Of a stretch of DNA of 40,000 nucleotides, positions 21,482 to 40,000 are shown one piece after another. Source of the stretch: Fervidicoccaceae archaeon. GTDB lineage: Archaea > Thermoproteota > Thermoprotei_A > Sulfolobales > Fervidicoccaceae. Location of the stretch: assembly GCA_038878695.1 (NCBI GenBank), contig JAVZVD010000002.1, positions 158,734 through 198,733 of the forward strand, read 5' to 3'. A program made the translations under genes and the position numbers. The notes beneath the pieces are model-generated. The model did no database searches. It saw nothing but the letters and a program-made list of their open reading frames with translations, and was not told the DNA's origin. How positions within the stretch are numbered: position 1 is the stretch's first letter; every line of letters begins with the position of its first letter.

Positions 21482-22617
21482 TGAGCGAGCTCCTCGAGGT
21501 CTTGGCGGCCAGGAGGGGCGAGCTCGAGAAGAAGATAGCCAGGCTCCTCGAGGAGGGGGGCCGAGGAGTCGGCGTAAAGTGGAGGCCTCTCCCCGAGCTG
21601 GAGCGCTTCCCCAGACCCGAAGGCCTGGTGGTCTCGGCAGTCGACGGGGGGAGCAACAGGAGGTCCCTGCTCTCGCTAGAGGTCTACGTCGTGAAGGCCT
21701 ACTCCGAGTCTGCGAGATTGCTCCCGAGCCTCGCGCTCGAGCCCCTCAGGAGGCGCAGGATCATAGACGTGGACGTCATGCTCCCTCCCCGCAACGTCGG
21801 CGAGAGGCTAACGCTCTACAGGCAAGTGGCCGAGGTCAAGCTGATGCTCGCCTCGGCGAGCTCATCGGATTTGATCCTCGCGGACGGGAGCGTGGAGTCT
21901 CTCGCGGCTAGGCCCATTCACGTCAAGCTGGTGGAGCTCGACCGAGGCGGGGGCCTCGTGCCGGACTGCGAGGAGCTCGCCTCGGAGATAGAGCGCGACC
22001 TGGCCTCGGGCAGCCCGAGAGCCATGGTCTCGAAGCCTCTGATCGAGGAGCTGGCTTCGACCGAGCGAGCGAGAGAGGAGCTCGCGGAGGAGATAAGACT
22101 CGTCGAGGCCGCGGAGAAGGCCGCGTCGCTCAAGCTCCTGCTCGACGCCGTGGCGGAGCGAGGAGCGAGCCTAGTCTTCGTCACGAAGACCGGGCGCTCG
22201 AACAGGCTCTTTGGGGCCTCGGTCCCCGACCAGTACGTGCTGCACGTCTCGACGAAGTCGTCGGGCTACTGCCGAGTCGGGGAGCCGAGCAGTCTCGCTG
22301 AGCTGCTGGGAGCGGGTCTCCTCCCGAGGTACTGCGGCCTTAGGAGCGCGGCCGAGAGGGTGATCGCCGAGAGAGGCTACGTGAGGCTCGCGCCGGGAGG
22401 CCCCGTGCTCGGGATCGACCTGATCGGCCCGAGCTCTTCGAGGAGACCTCTCGAAGAGGTCCTGCCTCTGCTCTCCGCCCTGTCGCCGAGCGGCTACCCG
22501 ACGCTTCTCCAGCTCGTGGACCGCGAATCTCACATATACAACGAAGAGGTAGATAGGGTGGTGACTGCGCTGGGCCTCTCGACGGAGTTTACGGGCAGGG
22601 AGGTGTTGGAGCCCTGA
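21478..22617 (+). CDS. nurA: NurA 5'-3' nuclease
   Basis: 379 aa. The ATGA overlaps the rad50 stop. VSAVDGGSN and LILADGS are typical NurA acidic motifs, and the gene sits in the mre11/rad50/herA cluster. Confidence 0.7.
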   Translation: MMSELLEVLAARRGELEKKIARLLEEGGRGVGVKWRPLPELERFPRPEGLVVSAVDGGSNRRSLLSLEVYVVKAYSESARLLPSLALEPLRRRRIIDVDVMLPPRNVGERLTLYRQVAEVKLMLASASSSDLILADGSVESLAARPIHVKLVELDRGGGLVPDCEELASEIERDLASGSPRAMVSKPLIEELASTERAREELAEEIRLVEAAEKAASLKLLLDAVAERGASLVFVTKTGRSNRLFGASVPDQYVLHVSTKSSGYCRVGEPSSLAELLGAGLLPRYCGLRSAAERVIAERGYVRLAPGGPVLGIDLIGPSSSRRPLEEVLPLLSALSPSGYPTLLQLVDRESHIYNEEVDRVVTALGLSTEFTGREVLEP

Positions 22618-22646
22618 GGTCGGCCGAGGAGGTCGCGGAGATAGGC

Positions 22647-24293
22647 GTGGTCATCGGCGAGACCACCCCAGGGAGGGCTCTGTTCCTAGCCAAGAGGCCC
22701 CCGAGGCTGGGAGAGTTCGTGATCATAGAGCACGACGAGGGATTCGTCCTGGGTATGGTCGAGGACTCGGTCGCCGGGAGCCCCTTCATATCGGACGACT
22801 CGACGGACATCGAGGCGGTCTCCAAGATGCTGCAGATCGTCGGCAGGGACAGGTTCTACCTGAAGGGCTCGGCCAGGACCCTCTCGAGGCTCGAGGACCT
22901 CATGGTCAGGAGGAAGGTGCGACCGGTCAAGACGCCGCCGAGGCCTGGAGCGAGAGTATTCGAGGCCGACGAGGGGGTCCTGAACAGGATATTCACGCCC
23001 CCCGGTCGTCCGCTGCTCGGCGGCGAGGCTTACTACGACGAGAAGACCAGGAGGGGCTACGTGAGAATAGGGTCTCTGGCCACGAATCCCAACGTCCCGG
23101 TCTACGTCAGCGTCGATAAGCTCGTGGCCCGCCACTGCGCCGTCCTGGCCATGACTGGGGCCGGCAAGTCGAACGCGGTGGCCGTGCTCTCGAATAGGAT
23201 AGCCAGAGCCTTCGGCGGGACCATCGTGATATTTGACTTCCACGGAGAGTACCTCGACGCGTTCGACAGCGAGGTCTCCAACGTGATAGAGCCCAGAATA
23301 AACCCCGACTCGCTCAAGCTCCACGAGATAGGGGCTCTCGCGAGCATCGTGCCGTCTTATCACAAGCAGTACAGAGCTCTGCGAGCCCTCTACGGACTCG
23401 CCAGAGCCCTCAGGAGCTCGGGGGAGGGCGGTGGGAAGAACGTCGTTGAGCTCATGATAGAGCTCGCGGACGCGATCGAGGACCGCGAGGCCGGGGAGGG
23501 GCTCCGCTCGCTCCTCGCCTCCTCGATCGCCCGGCCAGAGAGGCTGCCCTCGGAGGCCGAGGAGCACTATCGCAGGCTCGTTAAGCTCAGCTCCGACGTG
23601 TTGCACGAGGTGGCGGGGAAGCTCGAGGACCTCCTCTCCAGGTACAGAGGCTTCTTGAGCTCGAGCGCTCCCCGCGATCTCTCGAGGCTCATCGTGCCGC
23701 GCAAGCTCAACGTCGTGGACCTCTCGCACGTCGATAGGGAAGGCTGCGACGTCTTCGTGTCCTTCGTCTCGAGGAGCCTCCTCGAGGCCAGGAAGAGGTG
23801 GGTTGTGAGCGGGGGGCGCGAGGGCTACCCGACGCCCGCCCTCCTCGTCCTCGAGGAGGCCCACACGCTCGTGCCGAAGGGGGAGGAGCAGACGAACACG
23901 AAGACCGTGTTCTCACAGATAGCGAGAGAGGGGAGGAAGTTCGGCGTGGGCCTATGCCTCGTGAGCCAGAGGCCCAAGAGCCTCGACGAGAACAGCCTCA
24001 GCCAGACGTGCAGCAAGATAGTCCTCAGGATCGTCGAGCCCGAAGACCAATATTATGTTCAGAGGACTAGCGAGCAGCTCAGCCGGGAGCTCGTCTCGCT
24101 TCTGCCGAGTCTCGACGTGGGCGAGGCCGTGGTCTTCGGCGAGTTCGCTCTCTTTCCAGCCCTCGTCAAGATCGACGAGTTCGGGGCGAAGAGCATGGGC
24201 AGAGACCCCGACGTCGTGGGGGAGTGGCTGAAGACTTCGAGAGAGAGCGGCCGAGAGCTCGATGAGTTCATCGAGATGCAGTTCTCGAGCTGA
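22647..24293 (+). CDS. herA: HerA hexameric DNA helicase/translocase
   Basis: 548 aa. The N-terminal barrel reads GVVIGETTPGRALFLAKRPPRLGEFVIIEHD. Walker A is AMTGAGKSNAV and Walker B is LLVLEEAH, followed by REGRKFGVGLCLVSQRP. Confidence 0.85.
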   Translation: MVIGETTPGRALFLAKRPPRLGEFVIIEHDEGFVLGMVEDSVAGSPFISDDSTDIEAVSKMLQIVGRDRFYLKGSARTLSRLEDLMVRRKVRPVKTPPRPGARVFEADEGVLNRIFTPPGRPLLGGEAYYDEKTRRGYVRIGSLATNPNVPVYVSVDKLVARHCAVLAMTGAGKSNAVAVLSNRIARAFGGTIVIFDFHGEYLDAFDSEVSNVIEPRINPDSLKLHEIGALASIVPSYHKQYRALRALYGLARALRSSGEGGGKNVVELMIELADAIEDREAGEGLRSLLASSIARPERLPSEAEEHYRRLVKLSSDVLHEVAGKLEDLLSRYRGFLSSSAPRDLSRLIVPRKLNVVDLSHVDREGCDVFVSFVSRSLLEARKRWVVSGGREGYPTPALLVLEEAHTLVPKGEEQTNTKTVFSQIAREGRKFGVGLCLVSQRPKSLDENSLSQTCSKIVLRIVEPEDQYYVQRTSEQLSRELVSLLPSLDVGEAVVFGEFALFPALVKIDEFGAKSMGRDPDVVGEWLKTSRESGRELDEFIEMQFSS

Positions 24294-27435: not shown

Positions 27436-27975
27436 TTGAGAGGAGTCTTAGTGGGGGAGGAGGCTATCAAGGCTCTCGGAGGCCTCATCGACGACTCGAT
27501 CCTGGTCTTCCTGGGAAATAGGCTGCGGGGCGACGACGCGGCCGGTCTCCTTGTGGGGGAGCTCCTCCTGGCCTCCTGCGCGACGCGACGCGCTATCGTC
27601 TGCGAGTCCCAGCTGGAGCTGTGCTTGAGCGAGCTGAGCGGGAGGCTCGAGAAGGCGAGGAGGCTCATAATAATCGACGCGATCGAGGCGGGCCTCGAGG
27701 CCGGCCAGATAGCGTTGGCGCCCCTAGACGAGTTCTCGAGCTCGATCGACTTCTCCTCCTCTCACGGCATCTCGATGAGGCTCCTGTCTCGAGTCCTTAA
27801 ATGGCGCTACGGCGTCGAGGAGGCGTGGGTCCTCGGCGTGCAGGCCTCGGAGCTGGGGGCGGTGAGGCTCGAGATCTCCTCAGAAGTCAGAGAGGGCTGC
27901 GAGGTCCTCGCGGAGGCTCTGCTGAGCTCGCTCCCCGAATGCAGGCTCGGACGAGGGCTCGGGGCTTTTGATTAA
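27436..27975 (+). CDS. [NiFe]-hydrogenase maturation endopeptidase (HycI/HybD-like)
   Basis: 179 aa. FLGNRLRGDDAAGLLVG (the GNxxxxDDxxG motif), IIIDAIEAG and SSHGISM supply the Asp/Asp/His metal ligands typical of this protease family. Confidence 0.7.
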   Translation: MRGVLVGEEAIKALGGLIDDSILVFLGNRLRGDDAAGLLVGELLLASCATRRAIVCESQLELCLSELSGRLEKARRLIIIDAIEAGLEAGQIALAPLDEFSSSIDFSSSHGISMRLLSRVLKWRYGVEEAWVLGVQASELGAVRLEISSEVREGCEVLAEALLSSLPECRLGRGLGAFD

Positions 27976-28121
27976 GCTATGTTAAATGGAACCTCCTTAA
28001 TGAACGCCAGATGTTATCACAACCGGTCGCGCAAGTGCTCCGGGACTTAATATTTTTTTCTCTCAATGTGGAACGAAAATAATTATAAGGCTATTAGGAA
28101 GCCGAGTGCTGGGGCCAATCG
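27976..28121 (+). promoter_or_regulatory. Promoter region of the hydrogenase operon
   Basis: An AT-rich stretch with aaaataattataa (about 28076-28088) lies 35-45 nt upstream of GTG 28122. Confidence 0.4.
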
Positions 28122-28493
28122 GTGACGGCGAGTCAGATCGCTGTGGTCGTGTTGGCTCTAGCGCTCGCGCTGCTGACCTCGGTAGCCCTCTTTGCGGCTT
28201 CGGCGCTCCTCTCCTTCAAGGGCTCGCGCCCTTTAGAGCGCGACTCGTCTCTCGGCAGGAGACCCTTCACCGGCGGCGTGACTCTGGGCCCCCAGAGGTT
28301 CCGCTACTACACCGAGCTTATGGCGCTCGTCTCGTTCTTCCTGCTCGCCGAGGCCTTGGCGATCTTCTTATTGTTCTCCCCCGCCGGCTTGGAGACCGCC
28401 CTCTTCGCCCTGCTCGGCCTCGGCGGTATACTCTCGTCGGCTGTCTTGTTCCAGAGGAGGCGGAGAGCTCATGGGATTGGGAGACCTCAATAG
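28122..28493 (+). CDS. NuoA-like small membrane subunit
   Basis: 123 aa with three hydrophobic helices. It has the size, topology and first-gene position of NuoA/ND3. The assignment rests mainly on position and topology. Confidence 0.5.
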   Translation: MTASQIAVVVLALALALLTSVALFAASALLSFKGSRPLERDSSLGRRPFTGGVTLGPQRFRYYTELMALVSFFLLAEALAIFLLFSPAGLETALFALLGLGGILSSAVLFQRRRRAHGIGRPQ

Positions 28494-28938
28494 ATACATC
28501 AAGAAGAGCCTCTGGCTCTTCCACTTCAACGCCAGCAGCTGCAACGGCTGCGATATAGAGATAGTCGCGGCTCTCACGCCGAGGTTCGACGCGGAGAGGT
28601 TCGGAGCTCTCCTCGTCCCTAGCCCCAGGCACGCCGACGCTCTCGTGGTCACCGGCTCGGTCAATAGGCTCTCGGTCGACGCACTCAGGCAGATCTACAG
28701 CCAGATGCCCGAGCCGAAGGTCGTAATCGCCGTCGGCGCCTGCGCCTGCAGCGGGGGCGTGTTCCACGACTGCTACAACGTGATCGGGGGAGTCGATAAG
28801 GTCATACCGGTGGACGTTTACGTGCCGGGCTGCGCCGTTAAGCCCGAGGCGATAATCAAGGCGCTGGGCCTCGTGGCTGGCGTCAAGAGCGAGAAGAGGA
28901 AGAGGGGCAAAGCGAGGCCGATAGTAGTGGAGGCCTGA
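28471..28938 (+). CDS. Group 4 [NiFe]-hydrogenase small subunit (NuoB-like)
   Basis: 155 aa. SSCNGCDIE, HADALVVTGSV, GACACSGG and VPGCAVKPE give the four Cys of the proximal 4Fe-4S cluster in hydrogenase-type (CxxC) rather than Nuo-type (CC) spacing. Confidence 0.85.
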   Translation: MGLGDLNRYIKKSLWLFHFNASSCNGCDIEIVAALTPRFDAERFGALLVPSPRHADALVVTGSVNRLSVDALRQIYSQMPEPKVVIAVGACACSGGVFHDCYNVIGGVDKVIPVDVYVPGCAVKPEAIIKALGLVAGVKSEKRKRGKARPIVVEA

Positions 28939-28943
28939 TAGCT

Positions 28944-30566
28944 TTGGGCGGGAGACCCCTAGAGAACGTCGTGACGGTGGAACCGGAGGGATTGAGGGAG
29001 GCCGTAGAGCACCAAGTCAAGAGGGGCTACGGCCACCTCGTCACGATAACGGGGGTCGACGCGGGGGAGAAGATCAGGGTCCTCTATCACTTGTCTAGCC
29101 TGTCGGGCGACATGACTCACTTAGAGGTCTCGGTCCCCAAGAAGGTCGGGGCTTCTCTCCCCACGATAGCAGACGTGATACCGGGTTCTCTCTTCTACGA
29201 GATGGAGGTTCGCGATCTCTTCGGGGTTAGGTTCGAGGGGAACCCCTGGGAAGCCTATCGGTACCCGCTCCCCGAAACTTACCCGCGAGACGCGACCCCG
29301 CCTCTCTGGAAGGAGGCGGAGAACGAGAAGGTCAGGGAAATCATTTGGCGCGACGGCGATGCCCTCGGCCAAATTCAGACTAGCGCCGAGGGAGTGAGCG
29401 TCCCCTTTGGCCCCTATCATCCAGCCCTCAAGGAGCCCGAGCACTTCAGGCTGATCGTGGACGGCGAGACCGTCGTTGACGTCATACCGAGGCTGGGATA
29501 CGTCCACAGGGGCATCGAGAAAATCGCTGAGAGGAGGACCTACCTGAAGAACGTCTACCTCTTCGAGAGGGTGTGCGGCATCTGCAGTTTCATACACACG
29601 TACACCTACGTCCTGGCGGCCGAGAGCGTGGCCAAGGTGGAGCCGAGCAGGAGAGCCGAGTGGCTGAGGACTCTCGTGGCCGAGCTCGAGAGGGTCCACT
29701 CGCACCTCCTGTGGATAGGGCTCGTCGGGTACTGGATGGGCTTCGACACCATGTTCATGTGGCTGTGGGGCGTCCGCGAGAAGGTCATGGACGTCCTCGA
29801 GATCGTATGCGGCAATAGAGTGATGAAGGGCTTCGCGACAATAGGAGGCACCGTCAGAGACGTCACAGACTCTCAGCTCGAGCAAGTCAAGAGGGCTCTC
29901 CGAGAGATCGAGAAGCAGGCCTCCGACGTGATGGAGAGGATCCTCTCCTTCGACCTCTTCATCCACAGGACCAGAGGCTTCGGCGAGTTCGACGTCGAGA
30001 CCGCGAGGAGGATGTGCGCCGTTGGCCCCTACAGGAGAATCACGGGTGACCCCTACGACATAAGGAAGGTGGAGCCCTACGGAGCCTACCAAGAGCTGGG
30101 CTTCGAGCCCATAACAGAGAAGAGGGCCGACGCCTATCACTCCGTGCTCGTCAGGCTCAAGGAGACGATGCAGTCGATCGAGATGTGCAGGAGAATCGCC
30201 GAGGAGCTCCCCGCCGGCGCGGCGGTTCCCCAGAGATTTTACATGGCCTCTCCCCAGCCCGGCGAGGCCGTTGCTAGAACCGAGGCCCCCAGGGGCGAGC
30301 TCTTCTACTTCATTAAGTCGGCTGGCAAGCCCACCCCCGATAGAGTCAAGGTCAGAACGCCGAGCCTCGCCAACATGCTGCTCGCCGCTACGCTCCTGCG
30401 CGGAGCGACTCTCTCCGACGTCCCCATCATCTTCACGATGATAGACCCCTGCTTCAGCTGCACCGATAGGGTCCTGGTGTACGACGTGCGAACCAGGACC
30501 GCCAGGATGCTCAGGGAGGAGGACTTCATTAAGATGAGCAGAAAGAGGTGGGCTAGCTGTGAGTGA
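28944..30566 (+). CDS. Group 4 [NiFe]-hydrogenase large subunit with fused N-terminal NuoC-like domain (HycE-like architecture)
   Basis: 540 aa. The N-terminal ~130 aa are NuoC/30-kDa-like (FYEMEVRDLFGVRFEGNPW). The L1 motif is ERVCGICSFIH (Cys211/Cys214, nt 29574-29585). The L2 motif is DPCFSCTDR (Cys503/Cys506, nt 30444-30470), followed by a 31-aa tail. Confidence 0.85.
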   Translation: MGGRPLENVVTVEPEGLREAVEHQVKRGYGHLVTITGVDAGEKIRVLYHLSSLSGDMTHLEVSVPKKVGASLPTIADVIPGSLFYEMEVRDLFGVRFEGNPWEAYRYPLPETYPRDATPPLWKEAENEKVREIIWRDGDALGQIQTSAEGVSVPFGPYHPALKEPEHFRLIVDGETVVDVIPRLGYVHRGIEKIAERRTYLKNVYLFERVCGICSFIHTYTYVLAAESVAKVEPSRRAEWLRTLVAELERVHSHLLWIGLVGYWMGFDTMFMWLWGVREKVMDVLEIVCGNRVMKGFATIGGTVRDVTDSQLEQVKRALREIEKQASDVMERILSFDLFIHRTRGFGEFDVETARRMCAVGPYRRITGDPYDIRKVEPYGAYQELGFEPITEKRADAYHSVLVRLKETMQSIEMCRRIAEELPAGAAVPQRFYMASPQPGEAVARTEAPRGELFYFIKSAGKPTPDRVKVRTPSLANMLLAATLLRGATLSDVPIIFTMIDPCFSCTDRVLVYDVRTRTARMLREEDFIKMSRKRWASCE

Positions 30567-31530
30567 GCTCGCTCTCGAGGCCTTGCTCAGGACCTTGGTC
30601 TTCCCCGGCCTATTGTTCGCGACGATCTTCGCGCTGTTCTTGCAGTGGGTGGAGAGGAAGTCCGTGGCTAGGATCCAGTGGAGGATCGGGCCCAAGTTCA
30701 CCGGGCCCCGCGGGCTCCTACAGCCCCTCTACGACTTCCTCAAGCTCCTCACGAAACGCGAGATAGTCCCGGAAGGAGCTGACCCCCTGCTCTTCAGGCT
30801 GGCCCCGGCGATCTCGCTGGGAGTGCCGGTCTTCGGCCTGGCCCTCCTGCCTCTCTCCGGAATAAAGTCCCCTCTAGGCTTCGAGGGAGACTTCGTCCTC
30901 ATGCTCTTCGTGCTCTCGTTCGGAGCCTTCGCGATGGCTCTCGCCGGCTTCGCTGTGCTCAGCCCCTATACGTCGGTCGGAGTCGGCAGGCACGTGCTAC
31001 AGTACTCGGTCTACGAGGCCCTTCTCTCGATCGCGCTGATCCTCGCTGCTCTGCAGGCTAAGGCGCTGAGCGTGGAGGGCGTCTTGAGCTATCAGGCTCA
31101 GCATGGCCCGCTGTTGATCTATCAGCCGCTCGGCTTCGTGGCGGCCCTATTAGCGCTCATGGCGAAGCTCGAGAAGCAGCCCTTCGACCTCCCCGAGGCC
31201 AAGCAAGAGATCGTCGGCGGGTGGCTGACGGAGTACTCCGGCCGAGGTCTGGCTTTCCTCAAGCTCTACAAGGACCTCATGCTATTCTTCGGGGCCTCTC
31301 TCATGGCCGTGGCCTACTTAGGAGGACCCCTCGGCCCAGGCCACGACGCCGCGCCGATCATTGGGACGGCCTACTTCCTGCTCAAAGTGCTGCTGATATC
31401 GCTGCTGATCTTCGTGGTGAGAGGTATCGCCGCGAGGATCCGAGTCCTCGCGCTCGGAGAGTACTTCTGGGTGAGGCTCGCTCCCCTCCTCCTCGCGCAA
31501 GCAGCTCTCGTGCTCTTGGTCCTGAGGTGA
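30559..31530 (+). CDS. NuoH-like membrane subunit (HycD/MbhM/EchB-type)
   Basis: 323 aa. LQWVERKSVARIQWRIGP is the canonical NuoH N-terminal motif, and the protein is polytopic. Confidence 0.8.
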   Translation: MSELALEALLRTLVFPGLLFATIFALFLQWVERKSVARIQWRIGPKFTGPRGLLQPLYDFLKLLTKREIVPEGADPLLFRLAPAISLGVPVFGLALLPLSGIKSPLGFEGDFVLMLFVLSFGAFAMALAGFAVLSPYTSVGVGRHVLQYSVYEALLSIALILAALQAKALSVEGVLSYQAQHGPLLIYQPLGFVAALLALMAKLEKQPFDLPEAKQEIVGGWLTEYSGRGLAFLKLYKDLMLFFGASLMAVAYLGGPLGPGHDAAPIIGTAYFLLKVLLISLLIFVVRGIAARIRVLALGEYFWVRLAPLLLAQAALVLLVLR

Positions 31531-31537
31531 TCCGCTC

Positions 31538-31918
31538 GTGCCCAAGAGAGGCGCGACCGGGATGTTGAGCGAGGCCCTTAGGCGATTGGTCACCGAGCCC
31601 ATCACCGAGCCCTACGTGGTCGAGGACCTCGAAGAGCAGCCCCACCTGCGCGGGAGACCTCTGCTCATCCCGGAGAAGTGCACCGGCTGTAGGCTGTGCT
31701 ACATGGTCTGCCCCTCCTCTGCAATAACCATGGTCACGGTAGGGACCAGGAGGGTCGGGCAGAGAGAAGTCCCGCTGCAGCATCCCAGGTTCGATTACTT
31801 CAGGTGCATATACTGCGGCATGTGCTCCTACGTCTGCACGTTCAAGGCCATAGAACTCGAGAGAAAGCTCGTGCCGCTACACGTGGGGCCGAAGCCAAGC
31901 GGGGGCGAGGGCGCTTGA
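31538..31918 (+). CDS. NuoI-like 2x[4Fe-4S] ferredoxin subunit
   Basis: 126 aa with CTGCRLCYMVCP and CIYCGMCSYVC. Confidence 0.8.
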   Translation: MPKRGATGMLSEALRRLVTEPITEPYVVEDLEEQPHLRGRPLLIPEKCTGCRLCYMVCPSSAITMVTVGTRRVGQREVPLQHPRFDYFRCIYCGMCSYVCTFKAIELERKLVPLHVGPKPSGGEGA

Positions 31919-32361
31919 TAGGGGAGGCTCTGGCCGCGGTCGGCGCTGTTCTCGTTCTCCTGGCCCTTGTGGTCAGGAGGCTCTCCGTCGCCGTGGTCTC
32001 CCTATTTTTCGGGAGCGCGCTCGCGGGCCTTTCGATAGCTATGCTCGTTAGCCCCGCCGCCGGCGTCGTCGTAGCAACGCTCTACGCGGGGCTCCTCGTC
32101 ACCTTAATCCTGATAGCCTTGGCCGTCGTCCCGACCTCGCCCGAGGAGATGGAGCCCAGGATCGATTACGGGCACTTCCTCGCTCTGGTCTTCGGGCTCT
32201 CCTCCACCTATCTGATCTCAGTGCTCGTCCTCGAGCACGCCGGGCTCCTGGGCCTGAGCGAGCCAAGGGCCATGGCCATTCAAGACGTCGGAGCCCTGGC
32301 CCTCCTCATGCTCACAACGGCTATCGGAGTGGTAATGTCGATGTGGGGTGTGGAGGAGTGA
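31915..32361 (+). CDS. NuoJ-like membrane subunit
   Basis: Start re-set to TTG 31915, overlapping the upstream TGA (TTGA). The 148-aa protein has hydrophobic helices, an acidic loop and a further helix, and sits between the I-like and K-like genes. Confidence 0.5.
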   Translation: MIGEALAAVGAVLVLLALVVRRLSVAVVSLFFGSALAGLSIAMLVSPAAGVVVATLYAGLLVTLILIALAVVPTSPEEMEPRIDYGHFLALVFGLSSTYLISVLVLEHAGLLGLSEPRAMAIQDVGALALLMLTTAIGVVMSMWGVEE

Positions 32362-32663
32362 CCGGCGTGAGCTCTTCTTTCGTGACCGCGGTTGGGGTCG
32401 TCCTCGCCATGGGAGGCCTCGTCGCGGTCGCCGCTACGCGCAACTTGGTCAGAGTACTCATCGGGCTGCAATCGCTCGGCCTCGGAGCGATTCTGGTCCT
32501 TTCGTCGGCCGGCCTGAGCTCCGCCTTTTCGCCCACTTACGCCGTAGTGCTCGCGGCCTCGGCCGCAGCAGCGATGGAGGCCGCGAGCATAATCGTCGTG
32601 GTGGTCGTCTACAGGAAGTTCAAGACTAGCGACCCGAGGAGGATCTCCGAGCTCAAATGGTAG
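32343..32663 (+). CDS. NuoK-like membrane subunit (MnhC/HyfE-like)
   Basis: 106 aa (or 101 aa from GTG 32358, which overlaps the upstream TGA). RNLVRVLIGLQSLGLGAIL resembles the NuoK helix-2 motif; three TM helices. Confidence 0.65.
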   Translation: MGCGGVTGVSSSFVTAVGVVLAMGGLVAVAATRNLVRVLIGLQSLGLGAILVLSSAGLSSAFSPTYAVVLAASAAAAMEAASIIVVVVVYRKFKTSDPRRISELKW

Positions 32664-32676
32664 GAGGTGCGAGGCC

Positions 32677-34377
32677 TTGGCCGAGGTCAATCCCCTCCTG
32701 ATCCCGCTGGCGACCCTCGCGGCCTGCGTCTTGGAGCCGGCGTTGGGCAAGATCTCGAGGAGGGCGGGCGAGGGCCTTGCTGTGGTCGCCTCGGCCCTGG
32801 CCGCCGCCCTCTCGCTTTACCTATTTTCTCAGCCCCATAGGTGGCCCCTCTACTTGGGACCGTATCTCCCGCACGTCTCCTTCTACGTCGATCAACTCTC
32901 CGTCTTCATGCTCTGCGTGATAAACTGCATAGGAGCTCTCGTTGTCTACTACAGCGTCGGCTACATGGGACGCGACAGAGACTTCATTAGATACTACGCG
33001 TTGATACTCCTCTTCATCGGTTCAATGTCGGGCCTCGTCGTGGCTGGAGACCTCGTGCTCCTCTATATATTTTGGGAGATGGTGGGGATATGCAGCGCCC
33101 TCCTCATAGCCTATTGGTGGGAGAAGCCCGAGGCCAGGAGAGCCGGCCTCAAGGCCTTCGTGGTCACGAGGACCGCCGACTTTGGCATGTTGATAGGCGT
33201 CGCACTAGCCTACGCCGCTGCCGGCACGACCAGCGTGCCGGAGCTCCTGAGCTCGGCCTCGGGTCTGCCCGCTAGAATGGCCCAGCTCATCGGGCTTCTC
33301 CTCTTCGTCGGAGCCATGGGTAAGTCCGCTCAGTTCCCGTTGTTGGTCTGGCTCCCCGATGCCATGGAGGGGCCCACGACGGTTAGCGCCCTTATACACG
33401 CCGCCACCATGGTCAAGGCCGGCGTCTACTTGGTCGCCAGAATGTACCCGCTGATCTCGCTTTTCCCAGCTCTGATGCACTTGATCGCTGTCATCGCTCT
33501 AATAACCGTGCTCATGTCGGGCTTCGCCGCGATTGGGTCGAGAGACGTCAAGAGGGTTCTGGCCTTCAGCACGATCAATCACCTCTCGCTCATGTTCCTG
33601 GCCCTCGGCCTGGGAGCCTGGACCGCCTCTCAGCTCCACCTGCTTAGCCACTCGCTCTTCAAGGCCCTCCTCTTCCTCACGGCGGGTCTCGTGATTCACG
33701 AGACAGGCACCAGAGACATCTTCCAGATGAGGGGTCTCTATAGAGGCGGGCTGAGGATCTCGGCCATCTGCTTCCTAATAGGCGCTCTGAGCCTGGCCGG
33801 ACTCCCGCCCTTCCCCGGCTTCGTCACGAAGGAGATGGTGCTGGGGCTGCTTCACGGAGCGCTCCCCGAGGCCCTCGCATCGTTGGTGGTCTTCACGGTA
33901 TCCTTCACGTCGGCTCTCTACATCTTCAGGGCGTTCTTCGCGATGTTCTTGGGCGAGCCCAGCGGCCACTACCACGAGAGAGACAAGTTCATGGTCCCAG
34001 TCATCGTGTTGCTCTGCGTCGCCACGACCCTCGGCCTCTACCCGGTCCTCAGCGCCGCTCGCGCCTTCGGAGCGGAGCACTTGCACGCGGCCGTTGAGCC
34101 GCTCCCGCTCCTGGCCGCTCTGCTGGGCGTGGCGGTCTCCTACGCGCTCTGGGGCAGAAACGCGGCCCCCGAAATGAGGAGGTCTCTCGGCCCACTGGCC
34201 AGTGCGGCGGAGAGGAGCTTCCTCCTGGACGACGCCTACACGATGCTCGCCAAATTCGTCGCCGATAAAGTGAGCCGAGTTGCCACGATGATTCAGACAG
34301 GCGTTCCCTCGATAAACACCTCGTGGATCCTGGCCTTCGTTTTAGCGCTCGCGCTCCTCGTCTCGTTAGTGTGGTGA
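32677..34377 (+). CDS. NuoL/MrpA-like antiporter subunit
   Basis: 566 aa. WEMVGICSALLIAYW, GKSAQFPLLVWLPDAMEGPT and SALIHAATMVKAGVY are proton-antiporter core motifs. The C-terminal amphipathic segment FLLDDAYTMLAKFVADKVSRVA plus a final TM anchor resembles the NuoL lateral helix. Confidence 0.85.
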   Translation: MAEVNPLLIPLATLAACVLEPALGKISRRAGEGLAVVASALAAALSLYLFSQPHRWPLYLGPYLPHVSFYVDQLSVFMLCVINCIGALVVYYSVGYMGRDRDFIRYYALILLFIGSMSGLVVAGDLVLLYIFWEMVGICSALLIAYWWEKPEARRAGLKAFVVTRTADFGMLIGVALAYAAAGTTSVPELLSSASGLPARMAQLIGLLLFVGAMGKSAQFPLLVWLPDAMEGPTTVSALIHAATMVKAGVYLVARMYPLISLFPALMHLIAVIALITVLMSGFAAIGSRDVKRVLAFSTINHLSLMFLALGLGAWTASQLHLLSHSLFKALLFLTAGLVIHETGTRDIFQMRGLYRGGLRISAICFLIGALSLAGLPPFPGFVTKEMVLGLLHGALPEALASLVVFTVSFTSALYIFRAFFAMFLGEPSGHYHERDKFMVPVIVLLCVATTLGLYPVLSAARAFGAEHLHAAVEPLPLLAALLGVAVSYALWGRNAAPEMRRSLGPLASAAERSFLLDDAYTMLAKFVADKVSRVATMIQTGVPSINTSWILAFVLALALLVSLVW

Positions 34378-34384
34378 GAGCGAC

Positions 34385-35785
34385 ATGACCCCCCTCGGAG
34401 CCCTCGCGAGCGAGACCTCGGTCCTGCTCCTCACCTCGGCGGGAGTGACCGCTATAGCCTCGACGGGCCTCCTCGGCGAGGCGAGGAGCAGGAGTATATC
34501 GACCTATCTTCTGACGGCGTGGACTGGGCTCCTCCTATTGATCTTCGTTGGCGCGAGGAGCCCGGCCGGCTTCATAGGCGCTACCTCGGCCGCCATAGGG
34601 CTCGCCGCGGCTCTCTCTTCAAGCTGTATCATCAGGGAGAGAGGCAAGTTCCTGCACGACGCTGTGCTCCTCGCTCTCGTCGCGTCGGCCTATCTCGTGG
34701 CTCAGAGCAGAGACCTCATCAGGCTCTTCGTCTATTGGGAGCTCATGAGCGTGTCGATACTGGTCCTAACGGTGTTCCACTGGCACAGAGAGAACCTAGA
34801 GTCGGCCCTCAAGTACGTCATGATGTGCGGCGTCGGCAGCTTGCTCGCTCTGGTCGGCATCGGCATGACCGTGGCCGAGGCGGGCAGCACGTCGATCGAG
34901 GCCGTGGCCCGCGCGAGTCCGCTGGCGAAGGCCCTCATGGCCGTGGGCTTCGGCGTAGAGGCCGCGATCTTCCCGCTGCACTTCTGGCTCCCCGACGTCC
35001 ACATGGCCGCTCCCAGCACCGCTAGCGCTCTCTTATCCGGCATAGCCATAGAGACGGGCGCCTACGTGGCCGCCAGCGTGGCCTTGCTCGACGCGCACGT
35101 CGCCAAGGCGTTCGCGCTGGCCGCCCTCATCGGAGCATTCATTGGCAACTTAGCGGCCATAAGGCAGGACGACATGAAGCGGATGCTCGCCTACAGCAGC
35201 GTAGCTCACGTCAGCTACATAGTTTTGGGCCTCGTGGCTGGAGCCGCCCTCGCCAAGACGTACGCTCAGCTCCACATAATGGCCCACGGCCTTCTCAAGG
35301 GAGCGGCCTTCCTGCTCTCCGGCCTCTTCATAGCTCTGTGGGGCACGAGGAGCCTAAGCGTATTGGCCGGGAAGCTCGAGAGGACCATAGCGTTGAAGTT
35401 CTCCATCGTGGCCTTGGGCCTCGGCCTAACGGGGGTCCCCCCGTTCCTCACGTTCTGGAGCGAGGCTTTCACGTTCATAGGGCTCGTGACGACGAACTTC
35501 TTCGCGGCCACGATGGCCGTCGGTATGGCGATCGCGATACTGATCTCGGCCGCGTTCTACTTCAGACTGTTCTACTCTCTGAGCGTTGGGAAGGGGCCGG
35601 TCCTCCACGATGGGAGCGGAGAGAGCGGCGGGAACTCGGAGGAGAGGCCCGAGCTAGGCGCGAGCGAGACGGTGGCGCTGGTCGCGATCCTGGCTCTCAT
35701 CATCGTGGCCATAGCCTTGAGCGCCTTCCCGAAGACCTTGATCGACTACTTCAACCTCGGACAAATGATGTTGCCCCCAGCCTAA
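34385..35785 (+). CDS. NuoN/NuoM/MrpD-like antiporter subunit
   Basis: 466 aa. WELMSVS, FGVEAAIFPLHFWLPDVHMAAPS, SALLSGIAIETGAY and MLAYSSVAHVSY are present. Confidence 0.8.
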   Translation: MTPLGALASETSVLLLTSAGVTAIASTGLLGEARSRSISTYLLTAWTGLLLLIFVGARSPAGFIGATSAAIGLAAALSSSCIIRERGKFLHDAVLLALVASAYLVAQSRDLIRLFVYWELMSVSILVLTVFHWHRENLESALKYVMMCGVGSLLALVGIGMTVAEAGSTSIEAVARASPLAKALMAVGFGVEAAIFPLHFWLPDVHMAAPSTASALLSGIAIETGAYVAASVALLDAHVAKAFALAALIGAFIGNLAAIRQDDMKRMLAYSSVAHVSYIVLGLVAGAALAKTYAQLHIMAHGLLKGAAFLLSGLFIALWGTRSLSVLAGKLERTIALKFSIVALGLGLTGVPPFLTFWSEAFTFIGLVTTNFFAATMAVGMAIAILISAAFYFRLFYSLSVGKGPVLHDGSGESGGNSEERPELGASETVALVAILALIIVAIALSAFPKTLIDYFNLGQMMLPPA

Positions 35786-35957: not shown

Positions 35958-36983
35958 TCAGCGCGCCGCCTCGCTCACAGACTTCAGGAGCTCCTTGAGG
36001 GTCAACACGTCGAGCACGTCCTCGACCATGTCGAGCGAGTAGCCGAGCACCCTCGAGAGGCTCATGAGGAGCCCGTAGCGCGCCGCCTCGCCCCCAGCGG
36101 CGCTCTCTAAGAGCCTCCTGACCTCGATCCTCCTGGACTCGATCTCGTCCGCGAGCCGAAGGGCGGCCCCCGCATCCAGCTTGGAGAGAGCCGAGGCGGC
36201 CCTAGAGAAAATGGAGCTAGCCTCCTCGACCATCGCCACCAAGTCCTCGCCAATGGAGCCCCCCCTTAAGGCGATCTTCGAGGCCTCCTCGGCCATCGAC
36301 GCGACGTGATCGGCAACGCGCTCGAGAGCCTTGAAGCCGTGGTAGTAGTGGAGAGCCTCGGCTGGGCTCTCGAGGCCGGCCTCGGCCGGGGAGACCTCGC
36401 CCGAGAGCACGGCCACGAGCCTCCTCGTCAGACTCAGATAGAGCCTGTCGACTAGGTCGTCCCTCGCCCTGACGCTCTGGAGTTGGGAGAGGTCGCCCCT
36501 CTTCATCCCCTCGACAAGGTCCCTGAACATGTAGCTTACGTGCCTCGCCGCCAGAGCTACGGCCTCGCCGACGCCCAGGTCGAGCTGACTCCCGACGACT
36601 CTCATCGTCAGGCCCGAGCTAGACTCGTCCGTAACGACGACATCCATAATCTTCGAGGAGACGAGGTCGCGGAGAGTCTGAGCGATGGTCGAGCCGGATT
36701 CGTCGTGGAGCACCCTGAATACTCTGTAGCCGGCCACGTAGGCCGAGACCAGGGCCTTGGCCGCGGCGCTCGCGCTCGAGGAGCGCAGGTCGATGACCCT
36801 CTCGGGAGCTCGAGGTCTCTCCGCTCTCTCGAAGGAGGGAGAGATCCTGAGGCTGTTATCGGGGAGGACCTCGATGAGCACTCTAGAGCCCTTACCTACT
36901 CCGGCCCTTCTCGCCCAATCCCTCGGGAGCGAGACTATGAGCGTGGAGCGCCCCGTCAGCTGGACCCTCCTGACGTATAGCAC
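35958..36983 (-). CDS. phoU: Archaeal phosphate-uptake regulator: N-terminal AbrB/SpoVT domain fused to PhoU-like helical domains
   Basis: 341 aa. VQLTGRSTLIVSLPRDWARRAGVGKGSRVLIEVLPDNSLRISP is the AbrB-type swapped hairpin. The remainder is helical and PhoU-like (VRARDDLVDRLYL..., ALERVADHVASMAE). It is divergent from pstS. Confidence 0.7.
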   Translation of the reverse strand: MLYVRRVQLTGRSTLIVSLPRDWARRAGVGKGSRVLIEVLPDNSLRISPSFERAERPRAPERVIDLRSSSASAAAKALVSAYVAGYRVFRVLHDESGSTIAQTLRDLVSSKIMDVVVTDESSSGLTMRVVGSQLDLGVGEAVALAARHVSYMFRDLVEGMKRGDLSQLQSVRARDDLVDRLYLSLTRRLVAVLSGEVSPAEAGLESPAEALHYYHGFKALERVADHVASMAEEASKIALRGGSIGEDLVAMVEEASSIFSRAASALSKLDAGAALRLADEIESRRIEVRRLLESAAGGEAARYGLLMSLSRVLGYSLDMVEDVLDVLTLKELLKSVSEAAR

Positions 36984-37094
36984 GAAGACCGACCTCTATA
37001 TGCATCTATATAGTAGTATATATTAATTTTGATTCTATTTCGATCGCGCATATTAGCCGGCGGGTGAGCCCTCGAGCTCGAGGACTGAGCGCTC
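36984..37094. promoter_or_regulatory. Divergent phoU-like / pstS promoter region
   Basis: The interval is very AT-rich. TCTATAT occurs at 36995-37001 and again at 37005-37011 (10-nt phasing), then gtatatattaatttt. gcatattag (about 37048-37056) lies about 40 nt before TTG 37095. Confidence 0.4.
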
Positions 37095-38225
37095 TTGAGG
37101 AGCAGGGCCCTCTACGTCGTCGCCCTCGCCGCCGCGCTCGCAGCCGCCGCCCTCTTCTTGAGCTTGAGACCGGGGGAAAAGCCCGCGGAGTCGACGGGGA
37201 CGACGACCCCCGCGACCGCTACGCCCGAGAAGGTCACGCTCCTGGGATCAGGCTCGACGTTCGTGCACCCTCAGCTAGACGCCTGGGCCAAGGAGTTCAT
37301 GAGGAGGGGCCCAGGCGTCGTCATCGAGTACAGCCCTACGGGTAGCGGGGCTGGCCAGGAGCAGTTCCTGGCGAAGCTCGTTGACTTCGCTTGCAGCGAT
37401 CCCCCGCTGCCCAGCGGGGCTCTCGCGCAGGCCAAGAGGGATCCCAGAGGCGTGATCCAGCTCCCCCTCGTCATCGGGTCGGTGGTCGTGATCTATAATC
37501 TGCCGGGCCTCGAGGGGAGGCTCAGGCTGAGCGGAGAGGTCCTGGCCGCCATATACCTGGGCGAGATAGAGTATTGGGACGACCCGAGGATAGCCTCTCT
37601 AAACTCCGATCTGAGGCTCCCGCACGAGAGGATCGTCGCCGTGCACAGGTCTGACTCCAGCGGGACGACCCAAATCTTCACAGAGTTCCTGAGGAAGTCG
37701 TCGAGGGGTCTGTGGCCGCCCGAGTTGGTCGGGAAAGCCGTCGAATGGCCCGTCGATAAGACCGGGAGAGGACTGGGGGGGAAAGGCAATCAGGGCGTGG
37801 CCGACTTGGTCTCGAGGACCCCCGGCTCGATAGGCTACGTCGAGTACGCGTACGCTGCTCTCGCCAAGCTCCCCCACGCGCTGATCGAGAACGCGGAGGG
37901 GAGATTCGTCGATGCGTCGCCCGAGACCATGACGAGTGCGCTGAGAGGGGCTCTGGCGAAGCTCCCGCCGAGACCGGACGACGACTTCAACGAGTTCTGG
38001 GGCGGCGTCATCTTCGCTCCAGGCGAGGACTCCTATCCCATCACCTCGTTCTCTTTCCTGCTTCTATACAAGAGCTATCCGCCGAGCAAGGCTGAGGCCG
38101 TGAGGAGGTTCGTCGAGTTCATCTATACCGAGGGGAGGGGCCTCATGGTCGAGGGCTACGTGCCCGTGCCCGAGGAGCTCGCGTCTTACGCTCTGAGAGC
38201 CGTCGAGATTATCGGGAGCGGGTAG
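37095..38225 (+). CDS. pstS: Phosphate ABC transporter substrate-binding protein
   Basis: 376 aa. A signal/anchor helix is followed by LLGSGSTFVHPQLDAWAKEF, SPTGSGAGQEQF, RSDSSGTTQIFTEFL and GSIGYVEYAYA. Confidence 0.85.
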   Translation: MRSRALYVVALAAALAAAALFLSLRPGEKPAESTGTTTPATATPEKVTLLGSGSTFVHPQLDAWAKEFMRRGPGVVIEYSPTGSGAGQEQFLAKLVDFACSDPPLPSGALAQAKRDPRGVIQLPLVIGSVVVIYNLPGLEGRLRLSGEVLAAIYLGEIEYWDDPRIASLNSDLRLPHERIVAVHRSDSSGTTQIFTEFLRKSSRGLWPPELVGKAVEWPVDKTGRGLGGKGNQGVADLVSRTPGSIGYVEYAYAALAKLPHALIENAEGRFVDASPETMTSALRGALAKLPPRPDDDFNEFWGGVIFAPGEDSYPITSFSFLLLYKSYPPSKAEAVRRFVEFIYTEGRGLMVEGYVPVPEELASYALRAVEIIGSG

Positions 38226-38231
38226 AGAACG

Positions 38232-39158
38232 ATGAGGCTCGGGAGGCCTCTAGGCGACTTGGTTTTTTTCTATTGTCTCGCTGCTCCCGCTGCGGCGATG
38301 GTCTTAGCCTTCGCGCTCCTCTTCTACGCTCACATCGACTTGAGCCGCGAGGCCCTCGAGCTCCAGGGCCTCAAGACCTTCGCCGGCGCGAGGTGGAGGC
38401 CCTCCCTCGAGCCCCCGCCGAAGAGCGAGTACGGTCTGCTCCCAGCGATCGTCGGGACTCTCACTTCCGCCGGCATCGCTCTCCTCATCGCCCTCCCCGT
38501 CTCGGTACTCCTCGCGGTGTTTCTCGTCGAGATAGCGCCTCGCTCCCTCTCCCATCTCCTCGGGCTTATCATTGACGCTCTCGCCGGCCTCCCATCGGTC
38601 GTGTACGGGCTGTGGGGCCTCTATTTCCTGGGTCCCTTCTTGAGGAAGAACCTAATGGAGCCCCTCCACGAGCTCTTGGGCTTCCTGCCCTTCTTCTCGT
38701 GTAAGCCCCTCTCGGGGGCGAGCGTCCTCACGGCGGGGATCCTGCTCTCTATCATGATCACCCCCTTCGCCTCCGCTCTCGTGTACGAGGCGTACAGGAG
38801 CGTGCCCTCGGTCTACATCGAGGCCGCCTACTCCCTCGGAATGACCAGGTATGAGCAGGCGATGACGAGGCTCTCGATGATAAGAGGTGCCGTGGTCTCG
38901 GCGGCTCTGCTAGGCCTCGGGAGGGCCATGAGCGAGACCGCGGCCGTGACCATGGTGGTAGGAAACGCCTACGTACTCAGCCCCTGCGTCTTCTCTCCAG
39001 CCTACACGATCACATCGCTCATAGCCAATCAATTCGCCGAGTCCCGCGGCTACCCCCTCATGCTCAGCTCCCTCTTCGCGGGTAGCCTGCTTCTGCTTTG
39101 CGTCGGGCTCATTGTCAACGCGGCTGGCCTGAGAGCTCTCAGGAGCGTGAGACTGTGA
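38232..39158 (+). CDS. pstC: Phosphate ABC transporter permease PstC
   Basis: 308 aa, polytopic. The EAA-type loop is SVYIEAAYSLGMTRYEQAMTRLSMIRGAVVSA. Confidence 0.8.
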   Translation: MRLGRPLGDLVFFYCLAAPAAAMVLAFALLFYAHIDLSREALELQGLKTFAGARWRPSLEPPPKSEYGLLPAIVGTLTSAGIALLIALPVSVLLAVFLVEIAPRSLSHLLGLIIDALAGLPSVVYGLWGLYFLGPFLRKNLMEPLHELLGFLPFFSCKPLSGASVLTAGILLSIMITPFASALVYEAYRSVPSVYIEAAYSLGMTRYEQAMTRLSMIRGAVVSAALLGLGRAMSETAAVTMVVGNAYVLSPCVFSPAYTITSLIANQFAESRGYPLMLSSLFAGSLLLLCVGLIVNAAGLRALRSVRL

Positions 39159-40000
39159 GCTGGGCGAGGAAGCTCAAGGACAGGCTCTTCTCGGCTCTGG
39201 CCTCGCTCGTGGCTCTCGCCTTCGCGGCGGTCGCCCTCCACGTGGTCCTCTACGTGACTTGGAGAGGGCTCCCCGTCCTTGCCTCGGAGGGGCTCTCGCT
39301 GCTCTTCGAGAAGCCCGCAGCCGTGACGGCAGAGAGGCCGGGCGGCGTGGCTCCCGCCCTCGTCGGCACTCTATATTTGACAGCGTCCTCGCTCGCGATA
39401 GCTGCTCCGATGGCCGCGCTGGCGGCGGTCTTCTCGGTGGAGTTCCCCCGGAGCCCTCTGTCCAGGCTCGTCAGACTCACGTCGAGAGCTCTGCTCGAAG
39501 TCCCGACGATAAGCGTGGGCCTATTGGTCTTCTCGTTGTTGGTCCTCCCATTGGGGAGATTCACGGGATTGGCCGGGACCGTCGCCCTCGCCCTCGTGAT
39601 GCTGCCCTACGTGTACGTCTACGCGGAGTCCGCTCTGTCCTCAGTGCCCTCGACCTACGTCGAGGCCGGCTACGCGCTGGGCATGAGGAGAGCTCAGGTG
39701 GCTCTAGGCCTGAGACTGAAGATGGCGAAGAGAGGGGTGTGGAGGGGAGTGCTCATGGCTACGATGAAAGCGATGGGCGAGACGGCTCCCCTCCTATTCA
39801 CGGTCTACGGGGCTAGATCCGTAGTGTTCGGAGGCCCGCTTCAGCCGATAGATGCTCTCCCTCTGATGATATTCCAGTTCATTCAGAGCGGCTACGAGAA
39901 TTGGAGGGCTCTCGCGTGGGGAGGAGCCTTCGTGCTATTGGTCCTCTACATGGCGATGTACGCCGCGTACAGATTGGCCTTGAGAGGCGAGACTAAGTGA
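39155..40000 (+). CDS. pstA: Phosphate ABC transporter permease PstA
   Basis: Start re-set to GTG 39155, overlapping the pstC TGA (GTGA). The EAA loop is STYVEAGYALGMRRAQVALGLRLKMAKRGV. The TGA stop falls at 39998-40000, so the gene is complete. Confidence 0.8.
   Translation: MSWARKLKDRLFSALASLVALAFAAVALHVVLYVTWRGLPVLASEGLSLLFEKPAAVTAERPGGVAPALVGTLYLTASSLAIAAPMAALAAVFSVEFPRSPLSRLVRLTSRALLEVPTISVGLLVFSLLVLPLGRFTGLAGTVALALVMLPYVYVYAESALSSVPSTYVEAGYALGMRRAQVALGLRLKMAKRGVWRGVLMATMKAMGETAPLLFTVYGARSVVFGGPLQPIDALPLMIFQFIQSGYENWRALAWGGAFVLLVLYMAMYAAYRLALRGETK

Follow-up and report, generated by a model that had tools for sequence, protein, structure and literature searches.

The window analysed here is a stretch of 40,000 nucleotides (nt) from contig JAVZVD010000002.1 of a Fervidicoccaceae archaeon, and our subject is a locus within it that encodes a predicted membrane-bound [NiFe] hydrogenase laid out in the gene order of respiratory complex I. 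Genes were called from the open reading frame (ORF) listing and its translations, and families were assigned by Pfam and NCBIfam scans. The locus consists of ten co-directional genes on the + strand, a protease gene followed by a nine-gene block in nuo order (28122-35785), which the ORF translations and the two scans resolve as A-B-CD-H-I-J-K-L-N. The features are listed below with their E-values, lengths in amino acids (aa), and the number of transmembrane (TM) helices where these were counted.

27436-27975, + strand: HycI-type hydrogenase maturation endopeptidase (PF01750 1.6e-8; TIGR00072 1.5e-18)
27976-28121, + strand: AT-rich intergenic gap of 146 nt between the protease and A-like genes
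28122-28493, + strand: A-like subunit, 123 aa, about 3 TM helices, without a direct Pfam match
28471-28938, + strand: NuoB/MbhJ-type small subunit, 155 aa (PF01058 1.9e-32; motif SSCNGCDIE)
28944-30566, + strand: fused NuoC-like and [NiFe] large subunit, 540 aa (PF00329, PF00374, PF00346)
30559-31530, + strand: NuoH-like membrane anchor of the redox module (PF00146 4.6e-73)
31538-31918, + strand: NuoI-type subunit for two [4Fe-4S] clusters, 126 aa (Fer4 families; TIGR01971 NuoI 4.8e-17)
31915-32361, + strand: NuoJ-like subunit, 148 aa, about 5 TM helices, assigned by family alignment and without a direct Pfam match
32343-32663, + strand: NuoK-like subunit, 106 aa (PF00420 1.8e-10)
32677-34377, + strand: NuoL-type antiporter-like subunit, 566 aa (PF00361, PF00662; TIGR01974 above cut-off)
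34385-35785, + strand: NuoM/N-like antiporter-like subunit, 466 aa (PF00361 9.7e-45)

The nine-gene block is compact: neighbouring genes overlap by 23, 8, 4, and 19 nt or are separated by 5, 7, 13, and 7 nt, and gaps no longer than 13 nt leave no room for further subunit ORFs. The J-like gene begins with a TTG start that overlaps the TGA stop of I, and N is followed by a PhoU-like gene in convergent orientation. Direct reading of the AT-rich gap finds AAAATAATTATAAGG about 30 nt upstream of the A-like start, and the gap that bears it is probably the archaeal promoter of the operon. The initial annotation had described nine nuo-order genes, a set of catalytic motifs, and an upstream HycI-type protease, all of which we find where it placed them; its span of 27436-35785 is right for the locus as a whole, with 27436 being the start of the protease and the nuo-order block beginning at 28122. 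It was also correct that the cluster has no electron-input module and two antiporter-like subunits. Our scans of the cluster and of the other window ORFs found no NuoEFG, FpoF, HycB, or CooF, and L and the M/N-like gene are the only two antiporter-like (PF00361) genes of the cluster. In addition, no ferredoxin, hyp, FdhF, or CooS/CooF gene lies among the ORFs scanned in this 40 kb window, and no Mrp-type small subunit is found in the cluster.

The evidence for a hydrogenase-type catalytic core comes from the fused C-D protein, the small subunit, and the neighbouring protease. The large subunit carries RVC211GIC214SFIH as its L1 motif and DPC503FSC506TDR as its L2 motif, and its residues C211-G-I-C214-S-F-I-H218 and D501-P-C503-F-S-C506-T-D-R509 agree with both group 4 motif definitions, C[GS][ILV]C[AGNS]xxH for L1 and [DE][PL]Cx[AGST]Cx[DE][RL] for L2 (PMC7886697). 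Across an alignment of 25 full-length large-subunit homologues, C211, G212, I213, C214, S215, H218, D501, P502, C503, F504, C506, D508, and R509 are invariant. The fused protein has a 100% identical counterpart in a Fervidicoccaceae metagenome-assembled genome (MAG) and shares 45-55% of its residues with homologues from Infirmifilum, Thermogladius, and Thermofilum pendens. Its best solved matches are the hydrogenase subunits MbhL (3.4e-79) and HycE (3.7e-79), followed by Nqo4 (1.2e-52) and MbsL (2.4e-50). The solved MbhL chain stops exactly at ...DPCLSCTDR, so the 31 residues by which the window's large subunit extends C-terminal of R509 look like the usual tail that an endopeptidase removes. 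Judging by the motif, this tail, and the gene next door, the HycI-type protease is expected to cut after R509, and a protease homologue adjoins the cluster in most related loci.

The small subunit reads CNGCDIE, the CxxC of hydrogenases and not the tandem CC of Nuo. Its ligands for a single proximal [4Fe-4S] cluster are C24, C27, C91 or C93, and C121, and its best solved matches are MbhJ (1.1e-47) and HycG (5.8e-42), with the PSST subunit of complex I behind at 1.6e-33. The NuoI-type subunit contains two CxxCxxCxxxCP/T motifs, has MbsN, HycF, and TYKY among its PDB matches, and is likely to be the docking and entry point for electrons from ferredoxin. The ligand sets read from the sequences amount to three [4Fe-4S] clusters, two in I and one in B. 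The NCBIfam Nuo equivalog models for D and H all score below their curated cut-offs. By every sequence criterion, the redox module is that of a genuine group 4 [NiFe] hydrogenase, and the invariant L1/L2 cysteines, the C-terminal extension with its protease, and the MbhL/HycE and MbhJ/HycG matches uphold the initial annotation on this point.

The membrane arm is of the complex I type in most of its parts. The best solved matches of H are NdhA (3.9e-33) and Nqo8 (6.3e-32), followed by MbhM (9.7e-26) and HycD (1.1e-20). The J-like protein alone has no Pfam or NCBIfam match even at E<=10, and since the single protein matched nothing we gathered 35 J-like sequences from related loci, 27 of which match PF00499 (NuoJ; best 7.8e-13). 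The top PDB matches of the resulting profile are E. coli NuoJ (4.4e-6), mycobacterial NuoJ, Nqo10, and ND6, with MbhD at 0.038, and the protein carries a YAG motif in TM3. Judged by this profile, J is a full-length NuoJ homologue and not the split MbhD/E form. In the K-like subunit the family alignment shows Gln43 across the whole family, at a position that, going by the E. coli protein, we take to be the TM2 glutamate site of NuoK; the TM3 glutamate, Glu79, is kept.

The L subunit passes the NuoL model TIGR01974 (411.8 bits against a cut-off of 407.5), and its best solved matches are NdhF (6.2e-84), Nqo12 (1.1e-83), and NuoL (2.2e-80), with MrpA (1e-63) and MbhH (6e-47) far behind. All of the canonical key residues are present (E134, K216, H241, K247, and K385-E386). 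By hydropathy, TM15 spans approximately residues 472-492 and is followed by about 54 moderately amphipathic, non-membrane residues (493-546) and a terminal TM helix at 548-566; alignments with NuoL extend to residue 538. The initial annotation had noted a tail resembling a lateral helix, and this layout, together with the NuoL alignments, fits a shortened lateral helix spanning one neighbour. A single-sequence AlphaFold2 (AF2) model of L was of poor quality, with a predicted local distance difference test score (pLDDT) of 43.

The second antiporter-like subunit departs from the canonical pattern. The best NCBIfam match of the M/N-like protein is NuoM (TIGR01972), below cut-off, and the protein is roughly equidistant from MbsH, NdhD, MrpD, MbhH, and Nqo14. 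Its key residues are all acidic: E119 in TM5, E192 in TM7 (GFGVEAA), E223 in TM8 (IAIETG), and E360 in TM12. E119 is the usual TM5 glutamate and E360 is shared with NuoM and NdhD, whereas the solved homologues that we aligned (NdhD, two NuoM, and Nqo14) have lysine at both the TM7 and TM8 sites, the respective stretches being GFGIKMP and LAKLGAY in NdhD, AFAVKMP and LLKTAAY in NuoM, and GLGFKAA and SVKAAAF in Nqo14. About 45 loci of the family, from three archaeal classes, share the glutamates of TM7 and TM12, while the outgroup hydrogenase loci L072 and L075 keep the lysine. We found no description of this lysine-to-glutamate change in the related literature, in which no search was aimed at it.

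The A-like protein has three helices and a long TM1-TM2 loop with a PFTGG motif, with G52 and E77 (TM2) invariant, and by itself it has no Pfam or NCBIfam match even at E<=10. A profile of 30 A-like sequences from related loci has as its top PDB match ND3 (8b9z_A), weakly (E=0.019) and collinear over residues 5-101, and matches none of the Mbh chains at E<=10. PF00507, the most frequent family among these sequences, is weakly matched by 7/30 of them (best 0.0018), and many A-like homologues bear the IMG label 'NADH:ubiquinone oxidoreductase subunit 3 (subunit A)'. An hhalign comparison with true Thermofilaceae NuoA (E=2.8e-4, 41% probability) brings TM1, the loop, and the glutamate of TM2 into register. 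A phmmer search of the related loci with the true T. pendens NuoA retrieved no A-like protein, the relationship being seen at the profile level only. The AF2 model (pLDDT 68.5) places helices at 3-34, 57-85, and 90-116 with a disordered loop at 35-56, and a Foldseek search with the A-like protein found nothing. Its three-helix topology and invariant E77 suit the NuoA/ND3 family (PF00507, COG0838). We regard the protein as a probable, weakly supported homologue of NuoA/ND3. The initial annotation had claimed a complex-I-type arm with both J- and A-like subunits; the family matches bear this out for J, and A is the weaker case.

Whatever its name, the A-like protein is clearly part of the complex: it is universal in the family, and the profile detects its domain in 66 related loci, four of which have it fused to subunit I (L002:11611-12312, L001:11625-12326, L006:10583-11329, and L007:3472-4173). 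The fused 233-aa 'NuoI' has the two-cluster [4Fe-4S] domain first and the A-like three-helix domain at its C terminus (profile E 1e-10 to 1e-14). The carriers of this fusion, the clusters of T. pendens, Thermogladius calderae/KZ2Tp1, and Infirmifilum, have no separate A gene. Both the I-A fusion and the lysine-to-glutamate change in the M/N-like subunit may not have been reported before.

The composite gene order is widespread. Scanning genome contigs with a single protein retrieved no relatives, and an alignment-based pattern scan using one genome per species gave 80 loci, which we annotated with the window proteins. About 70 public loci have the order (protease)-A-B-C-D-H-I-J-K-L-N, which, with the protease included, is standard in dozens of non-ammonia-oxidising Nitrososphaerales and Bathyarchaeia, in one Thermoplasmata MAG, and in several Thermoproteota, the C and D genes being fused in the Thermoproteota loci. 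The variant orders are B-CD-[I-A]-H-J-K-L-N and protease-B-C-D-I-A-H-J-K-[double module]-N. A neighbour-joining tree of the D subunit unites all these loci in one clade, apart from Mbh-like and other group 4 clusters, with the window at the base of the fused-CD Thermoproteota branch and Bathyarchaeia loci of the same order in the window's clade. Most Bathyarchaeia and Nitrososphaerales loci show L and N only. In some Bathyarchaeia a single ORF of about 1080 aa instead encodes a tandem pair of antiporter-like modules, with an L-type tail in the second (L050:13160-16390, L043:13208-16450), giving three modules counting N in the order protease-B-C-D-I-A-H-J-K-LL-N.

In T. pendens (CP000505.1, approximately 1.009-1.021 Mb; L002:9586-21614) a true nuoA-B-C-D-H-I-J... 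operon, with Pfam matches to NuoA and NuoJ, lies 170 nt downstream of the cluster, and the hydrogenase-type cluster is thus not a replacement for complex I. Four cluster contigs of the scan (L004, L047, L057, and L070) bear the names Saccharibacteria, Acidiferrales/Acidoferrum, or 'bacterium'; the position of their D subunits inside archaeal clades suggests mis-binning or possibly transfer.

Among described systems, the nearest is the Hfo hydrogenase of Bathyarchaeia (Loh et al. 2021), an 11-subunit [NiFe] enzyme with the Fpo/Nuo gene organisation and intact L1/L2 motifs that lacks FpoFO/NuoEFG and an Mrp-type module and is presumed to be ferredoxin-coupled and ion-translocating (PMC7886697). 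As an 'Fpo-like' enzyme it was assigned to the heterogeneous HydDB group 4g (subgroup 4g-6 and its sister groups), known from genomes, with Hfo-like clusters also noted in Pyrodictium delaneyi and Ca. Methanomethylicus, and the authors state that it 'closes the evolutionary gap' to complex I (PMC7886697). Others describe group 4g as 'loosely clustered' with its function not established (PMC5037454) or as polyphyletic (PMC13582414). The window cluster shares with Hfo the L1/L2 motifs within an A,B,C,D,H,I,J,K,L...N order, as well as the lack of NuoEFG/FpoFO and of an Mrp-type Na+ module. Unlike Hfo, which has all 11 core subunits and three antiporter-like proteins, the window has no M, two antiporter-like proteins, and fused C and D; since the third antiporter-like subunit is missing we file the cluster as 'Hfo-like' and not as Hfo proper, a likeness drawn from gene order and the clade shared with same-order Bathyarchaeia loci, with the published Hfo compared by its description. 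Statements that hydrogenases lack relatives of NuoA and NuoJ (PMC3144371, PMC13399641) are overtaken by Hfo-like clusters. Our literature search on Gagatemarchaeaceae, Thermogladius, and Fervidicoccus hydrogenases found nothing specific.

Related complexes have also been reported from Heimdallarchaeia as groups 4j, 4m, 4p, and 4q, which are short-armed, have a NuoBCDI arm with NuoD predicted to be an active [NiFe] subunit, lack NuoEFG, and are proposed to dock ferredoxin at NuoI (Appler et al. 2024, bioRxiv 10.1101/2024.07.04.601786). They resemble the window in the NuoBCDI arm, the predicted active NuoD, and the absence of NuoEFG; they differ in being from Asgard archaea and not Thermoproteota and in having AF2-Multimer models, and the likeness is one of description. 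The initial annotation had suggested an uncharacterised group 4 subgroup, which is consistent with the placement of relatives in HydDB group 4g (PMC7886697, PMC5037454). Its implication that the cluster is a novel intermediate between hydrogenases and complex I does not hold, as the large subunit falls in a clade with the same gene order that has been described (PMC7886697; bioRxiv 10.1101/2024.07.04.601786). The architecture is not new: public genomes of the clade already show the order, and the kind is known in print, having been described from genomes only.

Better characterised relatives differ more. The Mbh hydrogenase of P. furiosus (group 4d, 6CFW) provides the best solved catalytic matches and is likewise processed after the L2 DR; it is ferredoxin-dependent, H2-evolving, and energy-conserving. 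In contrast to the window, its 14 subunits include MbhI, one antiporter-like subunit, and an Mrp-type module (MbhA-G) in which the NuoJ equivalent is split into MbhD/E. In the window, the NuoJ-type protein is single and full-length, a NuoA-like protein is present, a true NuoL with its tail is accompanied by an M/N-like protein, and Mrp small subunits are absent. We rejected an Mbh-type (group 4d) assignment because the Mrp-derived module, the split NuoJ, and MbhI are missing. The 11-subunit complex I/NDH-1/Fpo-like enzymes (Moparthi & Hagerhall 2011, PMC3144371) share the gene order and the lack of an NADH module, and their H, J, K, and L are the closest to those of the window. Their NuoD lacks the Ni-Fe cysteines, their NuoB has CC, and their three antiporter-like subunits carry canonical Lys/Glu residues, unlike the window, which has the cysteines, CNGC instead of CC, and two antiporter-like subunits, one with lysine changed to glutamate; with the NuoD and NuoH models below cut-off as well, a true complex I/NDH-1 was rejected. 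An Ehr-type complex was set aside because the Ni-Fe cysteines are present in the window. Marreiros et al. 2013 reportedly define Ehr as lacking those cysteines.

We favour, with a probability of about 0.8, the reading that the cluster encodes a nine-gene (ten-subunit-equivalent) membrane-bound energy-converting [NiFe] hydrogenase of the Fpo/Nuo-like kind (Hfo-like, HydDB group 4g) that makes H2 from reduced ferredoxin and exports ions. On this model, ferredoxin reduced by fermentative oxidation of 2-oxoacids or aldehydes would deliver electrons to the NuoI-like subunit, whose pair of [4Fe-4S] clusters, followed by the one in B, would conduct them to the Ni-Fe site in the D half, where 2 H+ would become H2; the ligands are read from the sequence and the activity is presumed. 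The initial annotation had likewise proposed that ferredoxin is oxidised directly, which is a reasonable supposition. The large subunit would be matured by Hyp proteins encoded elsewhere and finished by the adjacent HycI-type protease cutting after R509. By homology, the redox step would drive ion export via an A-loop/H/J/K interface that follows the plan of complex I and not that of Mbh, the ions leaving through a short arm in which the short lateral helix of L links one M/N-like to one canonical NuoL-like subunit. We expect the reaction to be reversible, with the H2-evolving, gradient-building direction more likely in a fermenting organism.

Several points weigh against this reading. The donor, the direction, the coupling ion, and the stoichiometry are all things we infer, and the group 4g architecture is known from genomes (PMC7886697). 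No gene for a ferredoxin, a Hyp protein, or a ferredoxin-reducing enzyme is present among the window ORFs scanned. The M/N-like subunit has no TM7 and TM8 lysines and the K-like subunit appears, by our reading, to lack one of the two NuoK glutamates, so that the arm may not pump in the manner of complex I. The homology of A to NuoA is marginal (E=0.019 against PDB; 41% hhalign probability), and the complex-I-like placement of the subunits is drawn from homology.

The alternative that bears most closely on the favoured one is the same enzyme in reverse, with the membrane potential powering an uphill transfer of electrons from H2 to ferredoxin. The sequence does not set the direction, reverse operation is established for the group 4 enzymes Ech, Eha, and Ehb, and it has been proposed for the same-architecture Hfo of Bathyarchaeia in acetogenesis (PMC7886697). 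The host, however, belongs to the Fervidicoccaceae, and the cultured relatives of its order and its neighbours are fermentative organotrophs; the same argument from fermentation has been made for Desulfurococcus (PMC6182646). No CO2-fixation or Wood-Ljungdahl genes occur among the window ORFs scanned, in a window of only 40 kb, and on balance we consider net ferredoxin reduction a possible but unlikely role. A ferredoxin:quinone oxidoreductase (or one using another lipophilic acceptor), related to the 11-subunit type of complex I and keeping its cysteines as relics, would agree with the nuo gene order, with the best NCBIfam matches of D, H, and L being Nuo models, and with the NCBI annotation of homologues as NADH-quinone oxidoreductase subunits. 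Relics, though, would not be expected to keep all four cysteines and the flanking motif residues invariant across phyla, or to retain the C-terminal extension and a dedicated protease gene; moreover, B has the hydrogenase CxxC, the Nuo models matched by the D subunit all fall below cut-off, and the T. pendens copy adjoins a separate true nuo operon. We find this explanation very improbable.

There is similarly little chance that the cluster is an Mbs/Mbx-like sulfane-sulfur reductase, or a formate- or CO-linked hydrogenlyase, even though MbsL, MbsH, and MbsN are among the solved matches and many relatives live with sulfur. We rejected Mbs/Mbx since MbsL matches far more poorly (2.4e-50) than MbhL/HycE (approximately 3.5e-79), and formate hydrogenlyase and the CO-dependent Coo enzyme since FdhF, HycB, CooS, and CooF are found neither in the cluster nor among the window ORFs scanned. 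To our knowledge, Mbs also lacks the Ni-Fe cysteines, which we count against an Mbs-like enzyme. Finally, hydrogenase-like redox subunits beside complex-I-like H, J, and L could point to a recent chimera or to a misassembly, with a hydrogenase module attached to a nuo membrane-arm operon in this MAG only. The conserved composite synteny refutes this, as the same order is found in complete genomes (Thermogladius, T. pendens, and Infirmifilum) and in about 70 loci of several archaeal classes, and its likelihood is negligible.

Within the favoured reading of an ion-exporting hydrogenase, we tentatively raise the idea, itself improbable on present evidence, that the family couples H2 formation to the membrane unlike either complex I or Mbh, with the M/N-like subunit acting as a carboxylate relay (a prolonged 'E-channel') or as a cation site that feeds a single canonical NuoL pump.

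The cluster is flanked by Mre11/Rad50/NurA/HerA, MFS-CBS transporter, DUF488, PhoU, and PstSCA genes. A complete Mre11/Rad50/NurA/HerA DNA-end-resection operon lies upstream on the same strand (window 17502-24293), and the downstream region (35958-40000) encodes a PhoU/MazE-domain protein together with a PstS-PstC-PstA phosphate transporter; next to the T. pendens cluster, too, there is a gene of the PhoU/MazE type (L002:8290-9312). Farther upstream, window positions 10001-12000 have a G+C content of 0.53, compared to about 0.65 elsewhere, and hold a run of family-4 glycosyltransferase genes that may be an acquired surface-glycan island.

Hfo-like complexes are the closest living picture of a step between energy-converting hydrogenases and respiratory complex I, having a Ni-Fe site that is working by its sequence and an arm already furnished with NuoA-, NuoH-, NuoJ-, NuoK-, and NuoL-type parts. 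This evolutionary link is already in print for Bathyarchaeia and Heimdallarchaeia, and the window adds little to the concept; what is added here is the spread of the two-antiporter form over Thermoproteota, non-ammonia-oxidising Nitrososphaerales, and Bathyarchaeia. The cultured, genetically simple hyperthermophiles that carry it (Thermofilum pendens, Thermogladius, and Infirmifilum) would offer practical material for the first biochemistry or cryo-EM (electron cryomicroscopy) on group 4g, and the lysine-to-glutamate changes of the M/N-like subunit and the natural I-A fusion provide two handles for its study. If true, the coupling suggested above for the M/N-like subunit would match the small free energy available between ferredoxin and H2, and, taken with the I-A fusions, it would mean that hydrogenases had the NuoA-type coupling loop before there was quinone reduction.

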